This document shows positions 18,224 through 27,880 of a stretch of 32,000 nucleotides of DNA, one piece after another; positions within the stretch are counted from its first letter, which is position 1, and each line of letters opens with the position of its first letter. Both the position numbers and the translations under genes were made by a program. The DNA lies in the NCBI GenBank assembly GCA_944387425.1, contig CALXEV010000005.1:30208-62207 (forward strand), written 5' to 3'. This DNA is from an uncultured Clostridia bacterium (GTDB lineage: Bacteria; Bacillota; Clostridia; TANB77; CAG-508). The notes under the pieces were generated by a model. The model worked only from the letters and a program-made list of their open reading frames with translations. It searched no databases and had not been told where the DNA came from.

Positions 18224-18712
18224 TATCTATAAAGCTAATAAAAATCTTAACTCAGACTAATATATATAGTGGTCAAATCTAATGTATATTGCTATACAAA
18301 TAAACTATACACCACATATATTAATCAGTTGCTCGACTATTAATACATTAGTAGAAACCATATTCATCCACGTGGGACTAATAACAACCCCATATAATAT
18401 AAAAATAATCTTAGTTCAAATATATTACATATAATTTAACCATATATACATATAAAAATAATCCTTGAAAATTTAAATAAAATACAGCTTACATACACAT
18501 AATATATTTTTATCGCCGACATATATTAAGCCATAAAAATGACCCAATAAATATCTTTGTTCGAATATTAATAAACTAATAAAAATCCATTAATATTCTT
18601 AACTCAACTTGTATTAACCTTATACACATATTATGTACAAAACAAAAAATAATATTCAAAAAAATAAAAATTTTTTAAAAAGTTTATGTCGAAGAATGTC
18701 GAACGATTTTTC

Positions 18713-18741
18713 TTGACAAAAAAGAATAAGGATAGTAGAAT
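18713..18741 (+). promoter_or_regulatory. Sigma-A-type promoter of the island virB4-like operon
   Basis: TTGACA (18713-18718), a 17-nt spacer, then TAGAAT (18736-18741). The tandem direct repeats ATGTCGAA at 18686-18693 and 18696-18703 lie immediately upstream. Confidence 0.6.
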
Positions 18742-18762
18742 GTTTGTGAAAGGAGAGAGAAA

Positions 18763-19302
18763 ATTAAGTCTATACAAAAATGGTTACCAATAGAAGATAT
18801 TCTTGATAGAGGAATTATAAAAATAAGAAAAAATAAATATGTAAAAATATTAAAAATCGAACCAATCAATTTTAATTTAAAAACTCAATTAGAAAAAGAA
18901 TCAATTTTAAATTCTTATAAAATTTTTTTAAAAACATGTAATTTTGATATTCAAATTTTAATTCAAAGTAAAAAAGCCGATTTAAGTGGTCATATTAAAA
19001 ATCTAAAAAAAATTTCAGAAAAAGAAAATAATAAAATATTAAAAAATTATTTAGAAAAATATTTGGAATTTATTCAAGAAAAAAATAATAAAAATAAATC
19101 TGCCACAAAAAATACTTATTTAATAATAAAAAATAATATAGAAAATAATGAAGAAAATATAATACAAGATTTAAATGAAAAATATTTTAAAATTAAAGAA
19201 TGTTTATATAGATGTGGAAATAATGTTTTAGAATGTAATAAAGAAGAAACAAAAAATATATTATTTTCATTTTTAAATTTAAAAATATTTTTAGAAAAAT
19301 AA
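18763..19302 (+). CDS. VirB4-family N-terminal domain protein (separate ORF; apparent ATT start)
   Basis: The frame is open from 18739 to the TAA at 19300-19302, but the first ATG/GTG/TTG is TTG at 19063 (the ORF-track entry). ATT at 18763 lies 7 nt after GGAG (18752-18755). The translation ..KSIQKWLPIEDILDRGIIKIRKNKYVKILKIEPINFNLKTQLEKESILNSYKIFLKTCNFDIQILIQS.. matches the VirB4 N-terminal pattern. Confidence 0.55.
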   Translation: MKSIQKWLPIEDILDRGIIKIRKNKYVKILKIEPINFNLKTQLEKESILNSYKIFLKTCNFDIQILIQSKKADLSGHIKNLKKISEKENNKILKNYLEKYLEFIQEKNNKNKSATKNTYLIIKNNIENNEENIIQDLNEKYFKIKECLYRCGNNVLECNKEETKNILFSFLNLKIFLEK

Positions 19303-19316
19303 AAGGAGGAATATAA

Positions 19317-21080
19317 ATAGAAAATAAAATATATTTAAAAGAAGGAAATTTTAATTCAAAAGATTTTATATCACCAACATATATTAATTTAAATAATCCA
19401 AAATTTTTAGAAATAGATGATTATTTTTTTTCCGGAATAATTATTGTAAATTATTATAGAGAATACAATGAATTAATTTTAAAAAATTTAGTTGAAACAA
19501 ATATAAATATGAATATTTCAATTTTTTATGAAAAAGCTGATACAAATAAAATAATTAAAGAACTTACATATAATATTGGAAATGTAGGTGCAGAAATAAA
19601 AAGTTCTGGAGAAAATAAGCAAGATATTGATATTGCTACATTTGCATATAGTGACGCGAAATATATAAGAAAAGAAATTCAAGTTAATAATGAGGAGCTT
19701 TATTTTTTATATATTTATTTGGAATTATTTTCAAAAGAACAAAAAGAATTGCAATATAATTTAGACAAAGTAGAAGGGATTTTACAAAGCAAAGGTTTAC
19801 AAACTAAAAGAGCATATTTTAGGCAGGAACAATTATTTAAATCATGTTTACCTTTATTAGAAAATAGTGAAACTTTAAAAACCGTAGGAAAAAGAAACAT
19901 TTTAACAAATGGATTAATAAGCACATATCCATTTATTTCATCTTCAATATTTGAAGATAAAGGAATTTATATAGGAACAAATATGTATAATAATTCATTA
20001 ATTTTAATAGATAGATATAATACAAATAAATATAAAAATGCAAATATGTGTATTTTTGGAACGAGTGGAGCAGGAAAGTCTTTTTATACAAAATTATTAA
20101 TATTAAGAAATTCATTATTAGGAATTGAACAATATGTAATAGATCCAGAAAGAGAATATAATAAATTAGCAAAAAATATAGGAGGTACAATAATAAAATT
20201 AGGACCTACTTCAGAAAATTATATAAATATTTTTGATATTAGAAAAGAAAGTATTGAAGAAAATGAACATGGATATCTAGCAACAAAAATAGGAAAATTA
20301 ATTGGATTTTTTAATTTAATTTTTGGAGAATTAAATGAAGAAGAAAAAGCAATATTAGAAGAAAAAATAATTGAAGTATATAAAATAAAAAATATTAATT
20401 TTAATGATAAAACATTATATAAAAATAAAAAATTTAAAACAACAAAAGATATGCCAATATTAGAAGATTTTTATAATATATTAAATGATGAAAAAACGAA
20501 AAAATTTAAAATAAAACTATTGCCATTTATAAAAGGTTCTTTTAAATTTTTTAATAATTATACAAATATAGAATTAAATAAAAAATTAATAATTGCTGAT
20601 GTATATGAACTTGGAGAAGAAAATATGAAATATGGTATGTACTTATTTACAGAATTATTTTGGGACAAAATTAAAATAAATAGAAAAATAAAAAAAGCAA
20701 TCTATTTAGATGAAATTTGGAGATTAATAGGTGTCACGTCAAATAAAGATGTAGCAAAATTTATTTATAAAATATTTAAAACTATTAGAAAATATGGAGG
20801 AAGTAGTGTAGCAATAACACAAGATATATCAGATTTATTCAGTTTGGAAAATGGTACTTATGGAAAAAGTATTTTAAATAATTCAAGTATAAAAACATTT
20901 TTTTCATTAGAAGAAGAAAATATTAAATTATTATCTCAATATTCTAATTTATCAGAAAAAGAAAAAATAGAAATTAAATCATTAAGGAGGGGAGAATGTT
21001 TAACATTTGTTGGAGATGAACATATTTTAATAAAAATTGAAGCAAATGAATTTGAAAAACAATTAATAGATGGACAATAG
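19317..21080 (+). CDS. VirB4-family T4SS ATPase (central and C-terminal ATPase part; apparent ATA start)
   Basis: It has the Walker A motif FGTSGAGKSFYTKLL, the Walker B-like motif AIYLDEIWRL and AITQDISDL. The track ORF starts at ATG 19509, but the frame is open from 19317. ATA there lies 7 nt after GGAGG (19305-19309), and the 64 extra codons are stop-free in very AT-rich DNA. Confidence 0.7.
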   Translation: MENKIYLKEGNFNSKDFISPTYINLNNPKFLEIDDYFFSGIIIVNYYREYNELILKNLVETNINMNISIFYEKADTNKIIKELTYNIGNVGAEIKSSGENKQDIDIATFAYSDAKYIRKEIQVNNEELYFLYIYLELFSKEQKELQYNLDKVEGILQSKGLQTKRAYFRQEQLFKSCLPLLENSETLKTVGKRNILTNGLISTYPFISSSIFEDKGIYIGTNMYNNSLILIDRYNTNKYKNANMCIFGTSGAGKSFYTKLLILRNSLLGIEQYVIDPEREYNKLAKNIGGTIIKLGPTSENYINIFDIRKESIEENEHGYLATKIGKLIGFFNLIFGELNEEEKAILEEKIIEVYKIKNINFNDKTLYKNKKFKTTKDMPILEDFYNILNDEKTKKFKIKLLPFIKGSFKFFNNYTNIELNKKLIIADVYELGEENMKYGMYLFTELFWDKIKINRKIKKAIYLDEIWRLIGVTSNKDVAKFIYKIFKTIRKYGGSSVAITQDISDLFSLENGTYGKSILNNSSIKTFFSLEEENIKLLSQYSNLSEKEKIEIKSLRRGECLTFVGDEHILIKIEANEFEKQLIDGQ

Positions 21081-21489
21081 AAATAATAAAATAATTTTTT
21101 TATATAATTTAAAAGAATTATATAGTAGTGGAAAAAAGTATAAAAAAGTGGAATTAAATTTAAAAAATTATAAAAATATAAAAATACAAAAAAATAAAAA
21201 TTTATTAATAGTAAATAAAATAAAAAATAATTTATTAATTTTAAAAAAATATTTTAAATTAAGTGATGAAATTATTTTTATTATAGAACCTAATTTTTAT
21301 TCAGTAAAAAAATATTATTTTGTAATTAATAAAATAATAAAATATAATATTAATCCTAAAAAAATAAAAATAATAATAAGAAATAAAAATGAAAAAATTT
21401 ATTATTTAATAATTAAATGTTTTTTTAAAAAATTAAAAATAGAAAAAATAGAAAGGGGTAAATATGGAATTAGAAAACGAAATAAATAA
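21070..21489 (+). CDS. Hypothetical, extremely K/N/I-rich basic protein
   Basis: 139 stop-free codons in roughly A/T-only DNA. The ATG overlaps the virB4-like stop (ATGGACAATAG). No SD is recognisable and I recognise no family. Confidence 0.4.
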   Translation: MDNRNNKIIFLYNLKELYSSGKKYKKVELNLKNYKNIKIQKNKNLLIVNKIKNNLLILKKYFKLSDEIIFIIEPNFYSVKKYYFVINKIIKYNINPKKIKIIIRNKNEKIYYLIIKCFFKKLKIEKIERGKYGIRKRNK

Positions 21490-22168
21490 TGATTTAAAAA
21501 TTGAAGAAAAACAAAATAATTTTTTTGACACAATGTTCGGAAAAGTTGTGGATAATGGAATAGATATTGGATTAAGAGCAATATTACCAGATTTGATTGA
21601 AGAGCAGGTTATAGATATTAAAAATGCACTTTTGAAAAATGGTATTTCAGAAGGAATTCAAACAGCCGTAAAATCTGTTTCAGATTTTGCAAAAAGTGCA
21701 TTAGGTATAGTAACAGGAAAATTTGAAAATATGGAACAAATTGAGATAGCCGTGGGTGATGGTGGACTTGTTGACACAATTTCATCAGCACTAGATAATG
21801 CTACAGACAAGATATATGAAAAAGGATATATAAACCGTACTATAAACAATATAATAAAAAGTGGAAAAGATATTCTATTAGAAAATGTTACACAAAAAAT
21901 AAAAGAAGAAATTGACGAACAAAATAATAGTATAGAAAGCTTAGAAAAATACATGGACAATTGGAAAGAATATTATAATAATAAAAATTTTGAAGGTATG
22001 GAAAAGGAAATAGAAAAAATACAAGAAAAACTAGAAGATATTATACCATTAGAAAATATTATAAAAGAAGCAAGAAATATTGAAACACTTCATGAATTAA
22101 TAAAAAATAAAGGACAAAATTTTGAAATTACACAAACAGAAAGAGAGTTAATAAATAAACTCTCTTAA
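21464..22168 (+). CDS. Hypothetical soluble protein with a coiled-coil C-terminus
   Basis: 234 aa with an AAAGGGG SD, no TM segment and a C-terminal heptad-like EK-rich region. I recognise no family. Confidence 0.55.
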   Translation: MELENEINNDLKIEEKQNNFFDTMFGKVVDNGIDIGLRAILPDLIEEQVIDIKNALLKNGISEGIQTAVKSVSDFAKSALGIVTGKFENMEQIEIAVGDGGLVDTISSALDNATDKIYEKGYINRTINNIIKSGKDILLENVTQKIKEEIDEQNNSIESLEKYMDNWKEYYNNKNFEGMEKEIEKIQEKLEDIIPLENIIKEARNIETLHELIKNKGQNFEITQTERELINKLS

Positions 22169-22515
22169 GATTTGCTATCATTTAATTTTTTACAGAAATC
22201 ATTAGAACATAAAACTATATGATAAATAAAATCTGATGTAGTTTCAGAATTTAATTCTAAAATATTATTAATTTTATTTAAAACATCATTTTTTGAATTT
22301 TTGCCAAAAAGTAAATAATCAGCTGAAACGCCAGTGTATTTTACAACTTTTTTTAAAGTTTTTACACTAAGAGAACGTTCGCCTCTTTCTATTTGGCCCA
22401 AAAATGAATCTGTAATATCTATTTTTTCAGAAAATTCTTCTCTTGTCATATTCATATTTTCTCTTATCTCACGTAATCTTTCTCCAATATTAATATCATC
22501 TTGATTAAGCTGCAT
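22165..22515 (-). CDS. XRE-family helix-turn-helix transcriptional regulator
   Basis: 116 aa with the N-terminal HTH_3 pattern IGERLREIRENMNMTREEFSEKIDITDSFLGQIERGERSLSVKTLKKV. Confidence 0.85.
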   Translation of the reverse strand: MQLNQDDINIGERLREIRENMNMTREEFSEKIDITDSFLGQIERGERSLSVKTLKKVVKYTGVSADYLLFGKNSKNDVLNKINNILELNSETTSDFIYHIVLCSNDFCKKLNDSKS

Positions 22516-27584: not shown

Positions 27585-27869
27585 TTAATATTTTTTATAT
27601 AAATATAATTTTGGTCTAACCAAATAATTTATAAAATATTTAAATACATATATTAAAGGTTCTCCATTAAAACCTATTATACTAAGAAGTGTAACAGGAA
27701 AACAAAGAGAAATCAATAAAAATATTTTTATATTCCAATCATGTATAAATAGATTAAGAATTAAATAAATACACACATACCAAATAACATTAAAAATAGC
27801 TGTTGAATAATCTATTACACCAAAAAGCTTACTTTTAAAATTATAATTTTGTGGAAAAATAAATTTCAT
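27585..27869 (-). CDS. TcpE/VirB3-like small T4SS membrane protein
   Basis: 94 aa. The N-terminus FPQNYNFKSKLFGVIDY is followed by two TM helices. It is the last gene of the T4SS-like operon. Confidence 0.5.
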   Translation of the reverse strand: MKFIFPQNYNFKSKLFGVIDYSTAIFNVIWYVCIYLILNLFIHDWNIKIFLLISLCFPVTLLSIIGFNGEPLIYVFKYFINYLVRPKLYLYKKY

Positions 27870-27880
27870 GAATCACCATC

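Follow-up and report, generated by a model that had tools for sequence, protein, structure and literature searches.

The subject of this report is a pair of consecutive open reading frames (ORFs) in a stretch of 32,000 nucleotides (nt) from an uncultured Clostridia bacterium (GenBank assembly GCA_944387425.1, contig CALXEV010000005.1, positions 30,208 to 62,207), referred to below as the window. The two ORFs, which we call ORF A and ORF B, encode the two halves of a VirB4-type ATPase of a type IV secretion system (T4SS), and comparison with related genomes indicates that they very probably begin not at ATG, GTG or TTG but at AUU and AUA, respectively, each behind a strong Shine-Dalgarno (SD) sequence that would support attenuated synthesis of components of an apparently vertically inherited, chromosomal T4SS. 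The elements at the center of this proposal, all on the forward strand, are as follows.

18749 to 18755, + strand: SD of ORF A, AAAGGAG; most relatives have AGGAGGTGA, a 9/9 match, in the same place
18763 to 19302, + strand: ORF A, TrsD-like VirB4 N-domain protein; 179 codons plus stop, predicted ATT start
19302 to 19309, + strand: SD of ORF B, AAAGGAGG, which begins at the final base of the ORF A stop codon
19317 to 21080, + strand: ORF B, VirB4/TrsE-type ATPase; 587 codons plus stop, predicted ATA start

The frame of ORF A is closed by a TAG at 18736-18738 and is then open from 18739 to the TAA at 19300-19302. Its first in-frame ATG, GTG or TTG is the TTG at 19063, which is codon 101 when counted from the ATT at 18763, and this ATT lies 7 nt past the GGAG at 18752-18755. 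The frame of ORF B is closed by the TAA at 19314-19316 and is open from 19317 to the stop at 21078-21080, with the ATG at 19509 as its earliest canonical start and with the ATA at 19317 exactly 7 nt past the GGAGG at 19305-19309. Neither ORF has an ATG, GTG or TTG at its SD, and SD scoring gives an 8-nt match for both, at a spacing of 6 for ORF A and an aligned spacing of 7 for ORF B. The gap between the ORFs is 14 nt in the window; because their frames differ and two stops intervene, a single frameshift cannot fuse ORF A to ORF B, as the initial annotation of this DNA had already recognized, and its coordinates for both ORFs, their SDs and the stops all agree with the sequence and the list of ORFs. 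The block that the two ORFs form has a G+C content of ~19%, as compared to 27-31% for the flanking housekeeping genes. An identical 523-amino acid (aa) ORF B product is found on nine independent metagenome contigs, and the same ATT and ATA are present in the six loci shown; the sole difference found among these contigs is a polymorphism in the spacer, TAA to TAT, in one strain. The recurrence of the same sequence in independent contigs rules out an assembly error.

Against NF045971, the model for the VirB4 CD1110 family, ORF A aligns with positions 2-168 (E=1.7e-9, 36.5 bits) and ORF B with positions 183-732 of 752 (E=6e-87, 292.6 bits), which accords with the earlier estimate that the two ORFs add up to roughly a full-length VirB4. 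The full-length cut-off of this model, 325 bits, is reached by neither separate polypeptide, and the split protein is predicted to act like VirB4 while standing outside the canonical single-chain membership of the family. ORF A also matches the TrsD model NF041427 (E=3e-6, 27.2 bits), although below the family cut-off of 200 bits, and its predicted similarity to TrsD is remote only; a Pfam TraC-like match is recorded for a full-length homolog of ORF A. The ORF B translation contains the Walker A motif GTSGAGKS and the Pfam domains PF19044 (P-loop TraG), AAA_10 (PF12846) and DUF87 (PF01935), and it matches the structure of the VirB4 C-terminal domain in PDB entry 4AG5 (E=2e-44). By these homologies, ORF A and ORF B together are predicted to supply one full-length VirB4 ATPase from two intact genes that are initiated separately. 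In related genomes ORF B has its own SD-led start at every locus, and the distance from the ORF A stop to the ORF B start, which has a mode of 11-20 nt, ranges from an 8-nt overlap to 1522 nt with no fixed frame; in 15 species, more than 100 nt (up to 1.5 kb) of other DNA parts the two genes. The freely varying gap and frame exclude a recoded fusion. The "split VirB4" of the initial annotation is thus real as a split, but it is not a lesion or an oddity of a single genome; rather, it is a stable two-gene layout of the whole lineage, with a precedent in trsD-trsE of plasmid pSK41.

The weight of the argument for AUU and AUA rests on comparison. A scan of species-representative genomes yielded 252 relatives, and the best 80 loci were kept, all of them from metagenome-assembled genomes (MAGs) of uncultured gut Clostridia, with 70-88% identity to the window in ORF B (up to 89% in another comparison) and 52-80% in ORF A. 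At each locus the start was called as the in-frame start-capable codon with the best SD, i.e., the best match to AGAAAGGAGGTGATC at an aligned spacing of 4-11 nt, with the following results.

ORF A starts in relatives (n=70): ATA 38, ATT 18, ATC 0, ATG 11, TTG 1, GTG 2
ORF B starts in relatives (n=81): ATA 40, ATT 23, ATC 1, ATG 11, TTG 4, GTG 2

ATA, ATT or ATC (collectively ATH) therefore stands at the SD in 56 of 70 cases for ORF A and in 64 of 81 for ORF B, and the alignment of orthologs that the initial annotation had proposed finds both the ATT/ATA and the split conserved in ~80 species. When control genes at the same loci were put through the same procedure, ATG was called in 229 of 235 cases (gyrB 56/58, gyrA 47/49, recF 45/46, a 234-aa gene 55/56 and a helix-turn-helix (HTH) gene 26/26), or in 95-100% of the calls for each gene. 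With the SD placed blind to the codon, an in-frame ATH is found at a spacing of 5-10 nt in 51/59 loci for ORF A and 50/60 for ORF B, as compared to 3-9 of ~60 in the other two frames, and the SD-to-start spacing of the ATH sites peaks at 7-8 nt, as it does for genes that start with ATG. Between the upstream stop and the conserved motif there is no ATG, GTG or TTG at all in 28 of 70 species for ORF A and 42 of 81 for ORF B. Where canonical codons are used, they occupy the homologous position near the SD in some species, as can be seen for ORF B by comparing ATG (L056, L059) or TTG (L090) with ATT (L082), with further clean examples in L048 and L078, and for ORF A by comparing ATG (L051, L083) with ATA (L047). 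At internal positions, ATA and ATT replace one another or are replaced by Val or Leu codons, almost never by ATG, from which it follows that ATA is an ordinary Ile codon in these genomes and that its exchange with ATG is peculiar to the start site. A reading of ATA as Met was rejected on the same grounds, since internal ATA aligns with ATT and ATC and not with ATG.

One apparent example of an ATG at the position of the window's ATA, the ORF B homolog P0005 ("MENKSKL...", encoded by L174), was set aside when the homologous ATG was found to lie 51 nt from the SD, after an inserted stretch rich in Lys and Asn (K/N-rich), with another ATA 7 nt past the SD. Among the relatives (L011-L090 and L174), a low-complexity, K/N-rich ORF B N-terminal tail of very variable length lies between the SD-proximal start and the motif FISPTYINL, and public calls of ORF B in relatives range from 580 to 657 aa. 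The variable length of this tail, which is nearly absent from the window, points to repeated slippage in A-rich runs.

Neither ORF is disrupted in any of the ~80 species examined, and both show purifying selection; the ratios of nonsynonymous to synonymous substitution (dN/dS), computed for the close clade against the window sequence, are as follows.

ORF A: 0.34 for the whole gene; 0.31 for the 100 codons upstream of TTG 19063
ORF B: 0.15 for the whole gene; 0.44 for the first 64 codons, which include the variable K/N-rich tail; 0.14 for the remainder
gyrB: 0.095

The tblastn matches of ORF A, as read from the ATT, begin at residues 1-3, and those of the upstream segments overall begin at residues 1-10.

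A third gene of the same apparatus shares the unusual start. The VirD4-like gene and the other T4SS genes of the window that bear on this comparison, all on the reverse strand, are these.

29098 to 30822, - strand: VirD4-like coupling protein (PF10412, PF12696); 574 codons from the ATT at 30822-30820
27585 to 29079, - strand: genes for a 94-aa T4SS membrane protein, a 290-aa polytopic VirB6-like protein and a 105-aa VirB2/TrbC-like pilin; canonical starts, pilin Pfam matches weak
621 to 2323, - strand: T4SS cluster at the left of the window with a PrgI/VirB3-like gene (621-968), two TrbC/VirB2 pilin genes (1077-1433 and 1919-2323) and a 134-aa gene; Pfam PrgI, TrbC and T4SS_pilin

The VirD4-like gene has GGAGG at 30835-30831 (a 5-nt SD match) and an 8-nt spacer to the ATT at 30822, and its first ATG, at 30786 and 12 codons downstream of the ATT, has no SD. 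A metagenome scan of its relatives returned ATA 17, ATT 8, ATC 2 and ATG 3, i.e., ATH in 27 of 30 distinct contexts, 17 of which have no canonical alternative; two loci (L101 and L102) have ATG at the codon homologous to the ATT. When the gene is called from ATG 30786, in the manner of public annotations, 12 residues are lost from the first hydrophobic segment, or membrane helix. The starts of the neighboring genes in relatives are ATG 16, TTG 11 and ATA 1 for the pilin, ATG 17 and TTG 16 for the 290-aa VirB6-like gene, and ATG 25, GTG 3, ATA 3 and TTG 2 for the 94-aa gene. An 8-9-nt SD followed by ATG marks the starts of four genes in the window, those for PrgI, the two TrbC/VirB2 pilins and the 105-aa pilin-like protein, and the first canonical start of the 134-aa gene is a GTG at 1904 to which our matcher assigned no SD. 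The weak starts are thus found in three components related to nucleoside triphosphatases (NTPases), namely ORF A, ORF B and VirD4, and the structural components are without them. TTG is unusually common for the pilin-like (11/28) and VirB6-like (16/33) genes beside VirD4 (loci L093-L172, homologs of 27881-29079), and the T4SS as a whole may have a gradation of start-codon strengths. Two other ATT starts from the automated scan were discarded: that of yidC (10558, minus strand) is spurious, with AAAGGGG, 7 nt and ATG 10534 as the likely site, and that of mnmG is an internal codon.

How the two halves of VirB4 might be expressed can be outlined with the help of the promoter that precedes them.

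18713 to 18741, + strand: sigma-70-type promoter of the ORF A/ORF B operon, TTGACA-17-TAGAAT; 11/12 matches, the best in the region

The promoter is conserved in relatives as TTCTTG(A)CA-17-TATAAT/TAGAAT, and in the window its -10 box ends 7 nt before the ORF A SD, which implies a very short leader. Transcription would begin a few bases past this promoter, extended SD pairing would anchor the 30S subunit, and fMet-tRNA would initiate at AUU 18763 and AUA 19317, such that both proteins begin with Met; the predicted N-termini of ORF A, ORF B and VirD4 are (f)Met-KSIQKWLPIEDILDR, Met-ENKIYLK and Met-KKFFLK, respectively. Poor decoding of these near-cognate starts would yield little protein, and with the ORF B SD located 11-20 nt after the ORF A stop in most species, coupled and roughly equimolar synthesis would be possible. 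The VirD4-like coupling ATPase, from its ATT at 30822, would be throttled likewise, and the pilin, PrgI and VirB6-like proteins would be made from ATG or TTG. We infer the size of the attenuation (~10% of AUG in Staphylococcus aureus), a sensitivity to initiation factor 3 (IF3), the coupling of ORF A to ORF B and any adaptive purpose from published studies of other genes.

As to why the weak codons persist, tolerated drift is a serious rival explanation, and one that we regard as possible without favoring it. It would hold that little of the ATPase is needed, that a strong SD suffices and that relaxed selection on the start, under extreme AT pressure, keeps ATA and ATT in place; the genes would be translated from ATH with no adaptive or IF3-sensing role. 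With G at 4-5% of third positions at four-fold sites and ATG as the start codon of 14-16% of species, ATG is no rarer than neutrality would predict. The proportions of ATA and ATT at the start roughly match those of internal Ile codons, and the codons have flipped frequently, with at least 17 start-codon changes in ORF A and at least 22 in ORF B, and with at least 5 and at least 7 switches, respectively, between ATH and canonical codons. The start types of ORF A and ORF B are uncorrelated (46/10/11/3, Fisher p=0.71), and the same counts leave unsupported the notion of compensation, whereby one gene would keep ATH when the other has ATG. What speaks against drift is that the trait is common to three genes of one machine and is specifically NTPase-related, while at least 6 neighboring T4SS and housekeeping genes keep ATG or TTG; that the trait was retained even as ORF A identity fell to 52%; that the SDs are unusually long; and that comparable cases that have been tested by experiment do alter phenotype (PMC4447247, PMC13068326).

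Certain of our observations weigh against the reading of AUU and AUA as selected, attenuating starts. The frequency of ATG, by exceeding the neutral frequency of G, shows a loss of selection for ATG and not selection against it. The longer SD match at ATH sites (7.5 nt on average, as compared to 5.6 nt in controls) would favor that reading, but the comparison is confounded by the selection rule, which counts any site lacking an SD as "canonical", and is descriptive only. In 12 species an in-frame canonical codon lies between the ORF B ATH and the conserved motif and might be used instead, and the GTG of GGAGGTG is in frame with ORF A in 18 species. The initial annotation had offered deliberate low-level translation as one explanation of the locus; real low-level translation from ATT and ATA is supported by the comparisons, and extends to VirD4, but the deliberate element is not, in that selection against ATG is not demonstrated. 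The alternation of ATA, ATT, ATG and TTG at one homologous site constitutes a natural comparative data set for asking if weak starts are selected or tolerated.

A more ambitious version of the attenuation reading, which we put forward as a doubtful conjecture, is that the TrsD-like protein, TrsE/VirB4 and VirD4 of this domesticated, origin-proximal T4SS form a translational regulon defined by AUH starts and extended SDs, in which the machine would be energized only when discrimination against such starts relaxes, e.g., at a low ratio of IF3 to ribosomes, under stress or in slow growth. If such a regulon were to exist, secretion or the transfer of chromosomal DNA would be coupled to the state of the translation apparatus.

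It is highly improbable that translation begins only at TTG 19063 and ATG 19509, to give a 79-aa fragment and a 523-aa ATPase, as public gene callers annotate. Both codons are canonical, and calls of the Prodigal type give 79-101 aa for ORF A, without a Pfam match, and 523 aa for ORF B in the species of the window (loci L001-L010). Neither codon has an SD, however, and canonical codons farther downstream occur at no conserved position, whereas the segments upstream of them are conserved as protein and under purifying selection; the 28 of 70 and 42 of 81 species without a canonical codon before the conserved motif offer no such start. Initiation at these codons would also cut 100 of the 179 residues from the N-domain protein and remove the FISPTYINL...EIDDY segment of ORF B. 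The callers recover full-length ORF A only where an ATG abuts the SD (L174), and as a consequence the gene for the VirB4 N-domain is effectively invisible in thousands of gut metagenome assemblies.

Early pseudogenisation, the other explanation in the initial annotation, would have ATG-to-ATA/ATT mutations and a stop inactivate a virB4 that was once a single gene. The closest plasmid homologs (in Vescimonas pMM35_02 and Bacillus mycoides) are indeed fused single genes, and the G+C content of the island is very low, ~19%, but the proposal is refuted to the point of being barely credible: the split and the ATH starts are lineage-wide and not private to one genome, neither ORF is disrupted anywhere, dN/dS falls well short of 1 (0.15-0.34 for the whole genes, and below 1 also in the regions 5' of the first canonical codon), species share 70-89% identity in ORF B, and the genes that other DNA separates in 15 species must be independent of each other.

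No more credence attaches to recoding or artefact, whether by a frameshift from ATG 18740, an A-B fusion by readthrough or frameshift, ATA as Met or a sequencing error, even though the A4 run at 18760-18763, if read as A5, would bring ATG 18740 into frame and one relative (L174) has ORF A and ORF B in one frame with a single TAA between them. The out-of-frame ATG 18740, which is absent from the discussion in the initial annotation, sits within the -10 hexamer of the conserved promoter, which disposes of a model of an upstream ATG plus a frameshift, and in the upstream alignment of the close clade we noticed no counterpart to this out-of-frame ATG (untabulated); the A-B gap and frame vary (mode 11-20 nt, range -8 to 1522 nt), internal ATA aligns with ATT and ATC, and the independent contigs that were examined carry an identical sequence.

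Upstream of the operon promoter are two further elements that may bear on its control.

18686 to 18693 and 18696 to 18703, + strand: two direct repeats, ATGTCGAA, that abut the -35 box
18404 to 18642, - strand: candidate structured non-coding RNA of ~240 nt in the spacer between gyrB and the ORF A promoter, divergent from ORF A

The ATGTCGAA repeats are probably an operator; roughly half of the close clade, and distant species as well, retain the arrangement TGTCGAA-N-TGTCGAACGATTTTTCTTG. The product of the HTH_3 gene at 22165-22515 on the minus strand is a candidate for the protein that binds them. The RNA element is more conserved than coding sequence, with a 20-mer, TTATCGCCGACATATATTAA, that is identical in at least 14 species. 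Its consensus fold (alifold) is -41 kcal/mol on the minus strand as compared to -2.5 on the other strand, the corresponding single-sequence z-scores are -5.1 and -1.0, and covariation is seen at 11 pairs versus 2.6 in shuffles, with 97.7% of cells paired. The element is present in 54 of 82 loci and is divergent from ORF A in every one of them; the spacer between gyrB and ORF A has no Rfam match, there is no ORF within the element, and a possible promoter, TTGAAT-18-CATAAT, lies at 18659-18630. The region 18404-18642 is therefore a candidate for a new non-coding RNA that lies outside the start-codon feature, and it might take part in control of the regulon conjectured above.

The window as a whole represents a chromosomal origin region. 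From left to right, its gene order is PrgI-like, two TrbC/VirB2 pilins, two tRNA-Ser genes, parB, parA, rsmG, mnmG, mnmE, jag, yidC, rnpA, dnaA, dnaN, recF, gyrB, ORF A, ORF B, a 139-aa gene, a 234-aa gene, an HTH regulator on the opposite strand, gyrA, dnaI-like, dnaD-like, the 94-aa gene, VirB6-like, pilin-like and VirD4-like. The T4SS genes fall into three clusters (621-2323 on the minus strand, 18763-22515, and 27585-30822 on the minus strand) that are interleaved with parAB, dnaA-dnaN-recF-gyrB, gyrA and the dnaD/dnaI-like genes and that comprise PrgI, three or four pilin-like genes, VirB6-like, the split VirB4 and VirD4. The annotated ORFs of the 32-kb window include no relaxase or integrase. 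The order from gyrB to VirD4 recurs in the four contigs of the CAG:356 type that were examined, gyrB adjoins the VirB4 genes in 58 of 82 loci and gyrA does so in 49 of 82, and homologs of ORF B with 85-89% identity number in the thousands, one of which (P0082, Clostridium sp. CAG:356 according to NCBI) occupies the same slot between gyrB and gyrA on contigs of up to 1.66 Mb. The T4SS appears from this distribution to be vertically inherited and fixed in the chromosome, and not a recent insertion. What has come to light is an unusual T4SS, scattered among the essential genes near oriC in abundant uncultured gut Clostridia, with a conserved RNA beside it.

Two further genes accompany the VirB4 pair in the middle cluster.

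21464 to 22168, + strand: 234-aa gene downstream of VirB4, conserved, with canonical SD and ATG
22165 to 22515, - strand: HTH_3 (XRE-type) regulator, convergent with the operon (PF01381, E=9e-16)

The 234-aa gene had no significant family match in family searches, and the HTH_3 gene is a candidate repressor. The 139-aa ORF at 21070-21489 overlaps the end of ORF B and, of the 82 loci, only those from the same species as the window have it; in related genomes VirB4 is followed directly by a gene of 230-234 aa, and in one variant (P0024) ORF B runs into a different C-terminal sequence. At the right of the window, a c-di-GMP-I riboswitch (31809-31895, + strand, 82 bits, E=7e-15) lies downstream of a Lys-Glu-Thr tRNA cluster, and the gene that it regulates is beyond the window end. 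A paper on a "conserved pilin" in TANB77 (PMC11680825) was considered and set aside; it concerns a Tad-type pilus and shows no link to the T4SS locus.

Among known systems, the closest counterpart in layout is trsD-trsE (traD-traE) of the staphylococcal conjugative plasmids of the pSK41/pGO1 type, in which a TrsD of ~200 aa is followed 14 nt later by a DUF87/VirB4 ATPase of ~600-670 aa; in pairwise comparison with pSK41, ORF A and TrsD are 24% identical (E=4e-4) and ORF B and TrsE 28% (E=1e-50). In pSK41, by contrast, both genes start with ATG, and the system is plasmid-borne, with a relaxase and its tra genes in one contiguous operon. ORF A and ORF B both score best against the CD1110-family VirB4 of clostridial and other Bacillota conjugative elements. 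The nearest plasmid homologs, at ~31-32% identity, are in Vescimonas fastidiosa pMM35_02 ("PrgI family protein") and on a Bacillus mycoides plasmid ("DUF87 domain-containing"). These are single polypeptides, of 942 and 831 aa as judged from the coordinates of their coding sequences, whereas the protein considered here is split at about model position 170-183; because these nearest homologs are fused, the split is taken to be derived. The matches to ORF A and to ORF B both fall inside one Vescimonas coding sequence, and here PrgI is encoded by a separate gene 18 kb away.

With respect to the start codons, the classic AUU starts are those of infC and pcnB in Escherichia coli, and to our knowledge conserved initiation at AUU or AUA is documented in only a handful of bacterial genes. 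Our literature search turned up no specific report of such starts in genes for T4SS or conjugation. Published precedents in Firmicutes pair AUU or AUA with an extended SD and lower expression roughly ten-fold (PMC13009471, PMC4447247, PMC13068326). In S. aureus, infC (AUA), ccpN (AUA) and cvfC1 (AUU) are expressed at ~10% of the level with AUG, or ~30% for ccpN in rich medium (PMC13009471). In Enterococcus faecalis, ebpA starts at ATT and the annotated downstream ATG is unused (PMC4447247), and ATA and ATT variants of rsbW have been described in Listeria monocytogenes (PMC13068326). The S. aureus genes and ebpA have in common with the genes of the window an AUU or AUA at normal spacing behind a long SD, no canonical codon at the SD and conservation in relatives, and ebpA has in common with them a public annotation that places the start at a downstream ATG. 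The rationale of IF3 autoregulation that accounts for infC does not apply to T4SS genes. In contrast to the known near-cognate cases, the trait here belongs to three genes of a single apparatus (VirD4 and the two halves of VirB4, whose cistrons are neighbors) in ~80 species, and is predicted from sequence. The proposed mechanism is a known one, and the novelty lies in its coordinated use by three genes of a single secretion machine throughout an uncultured lineage.

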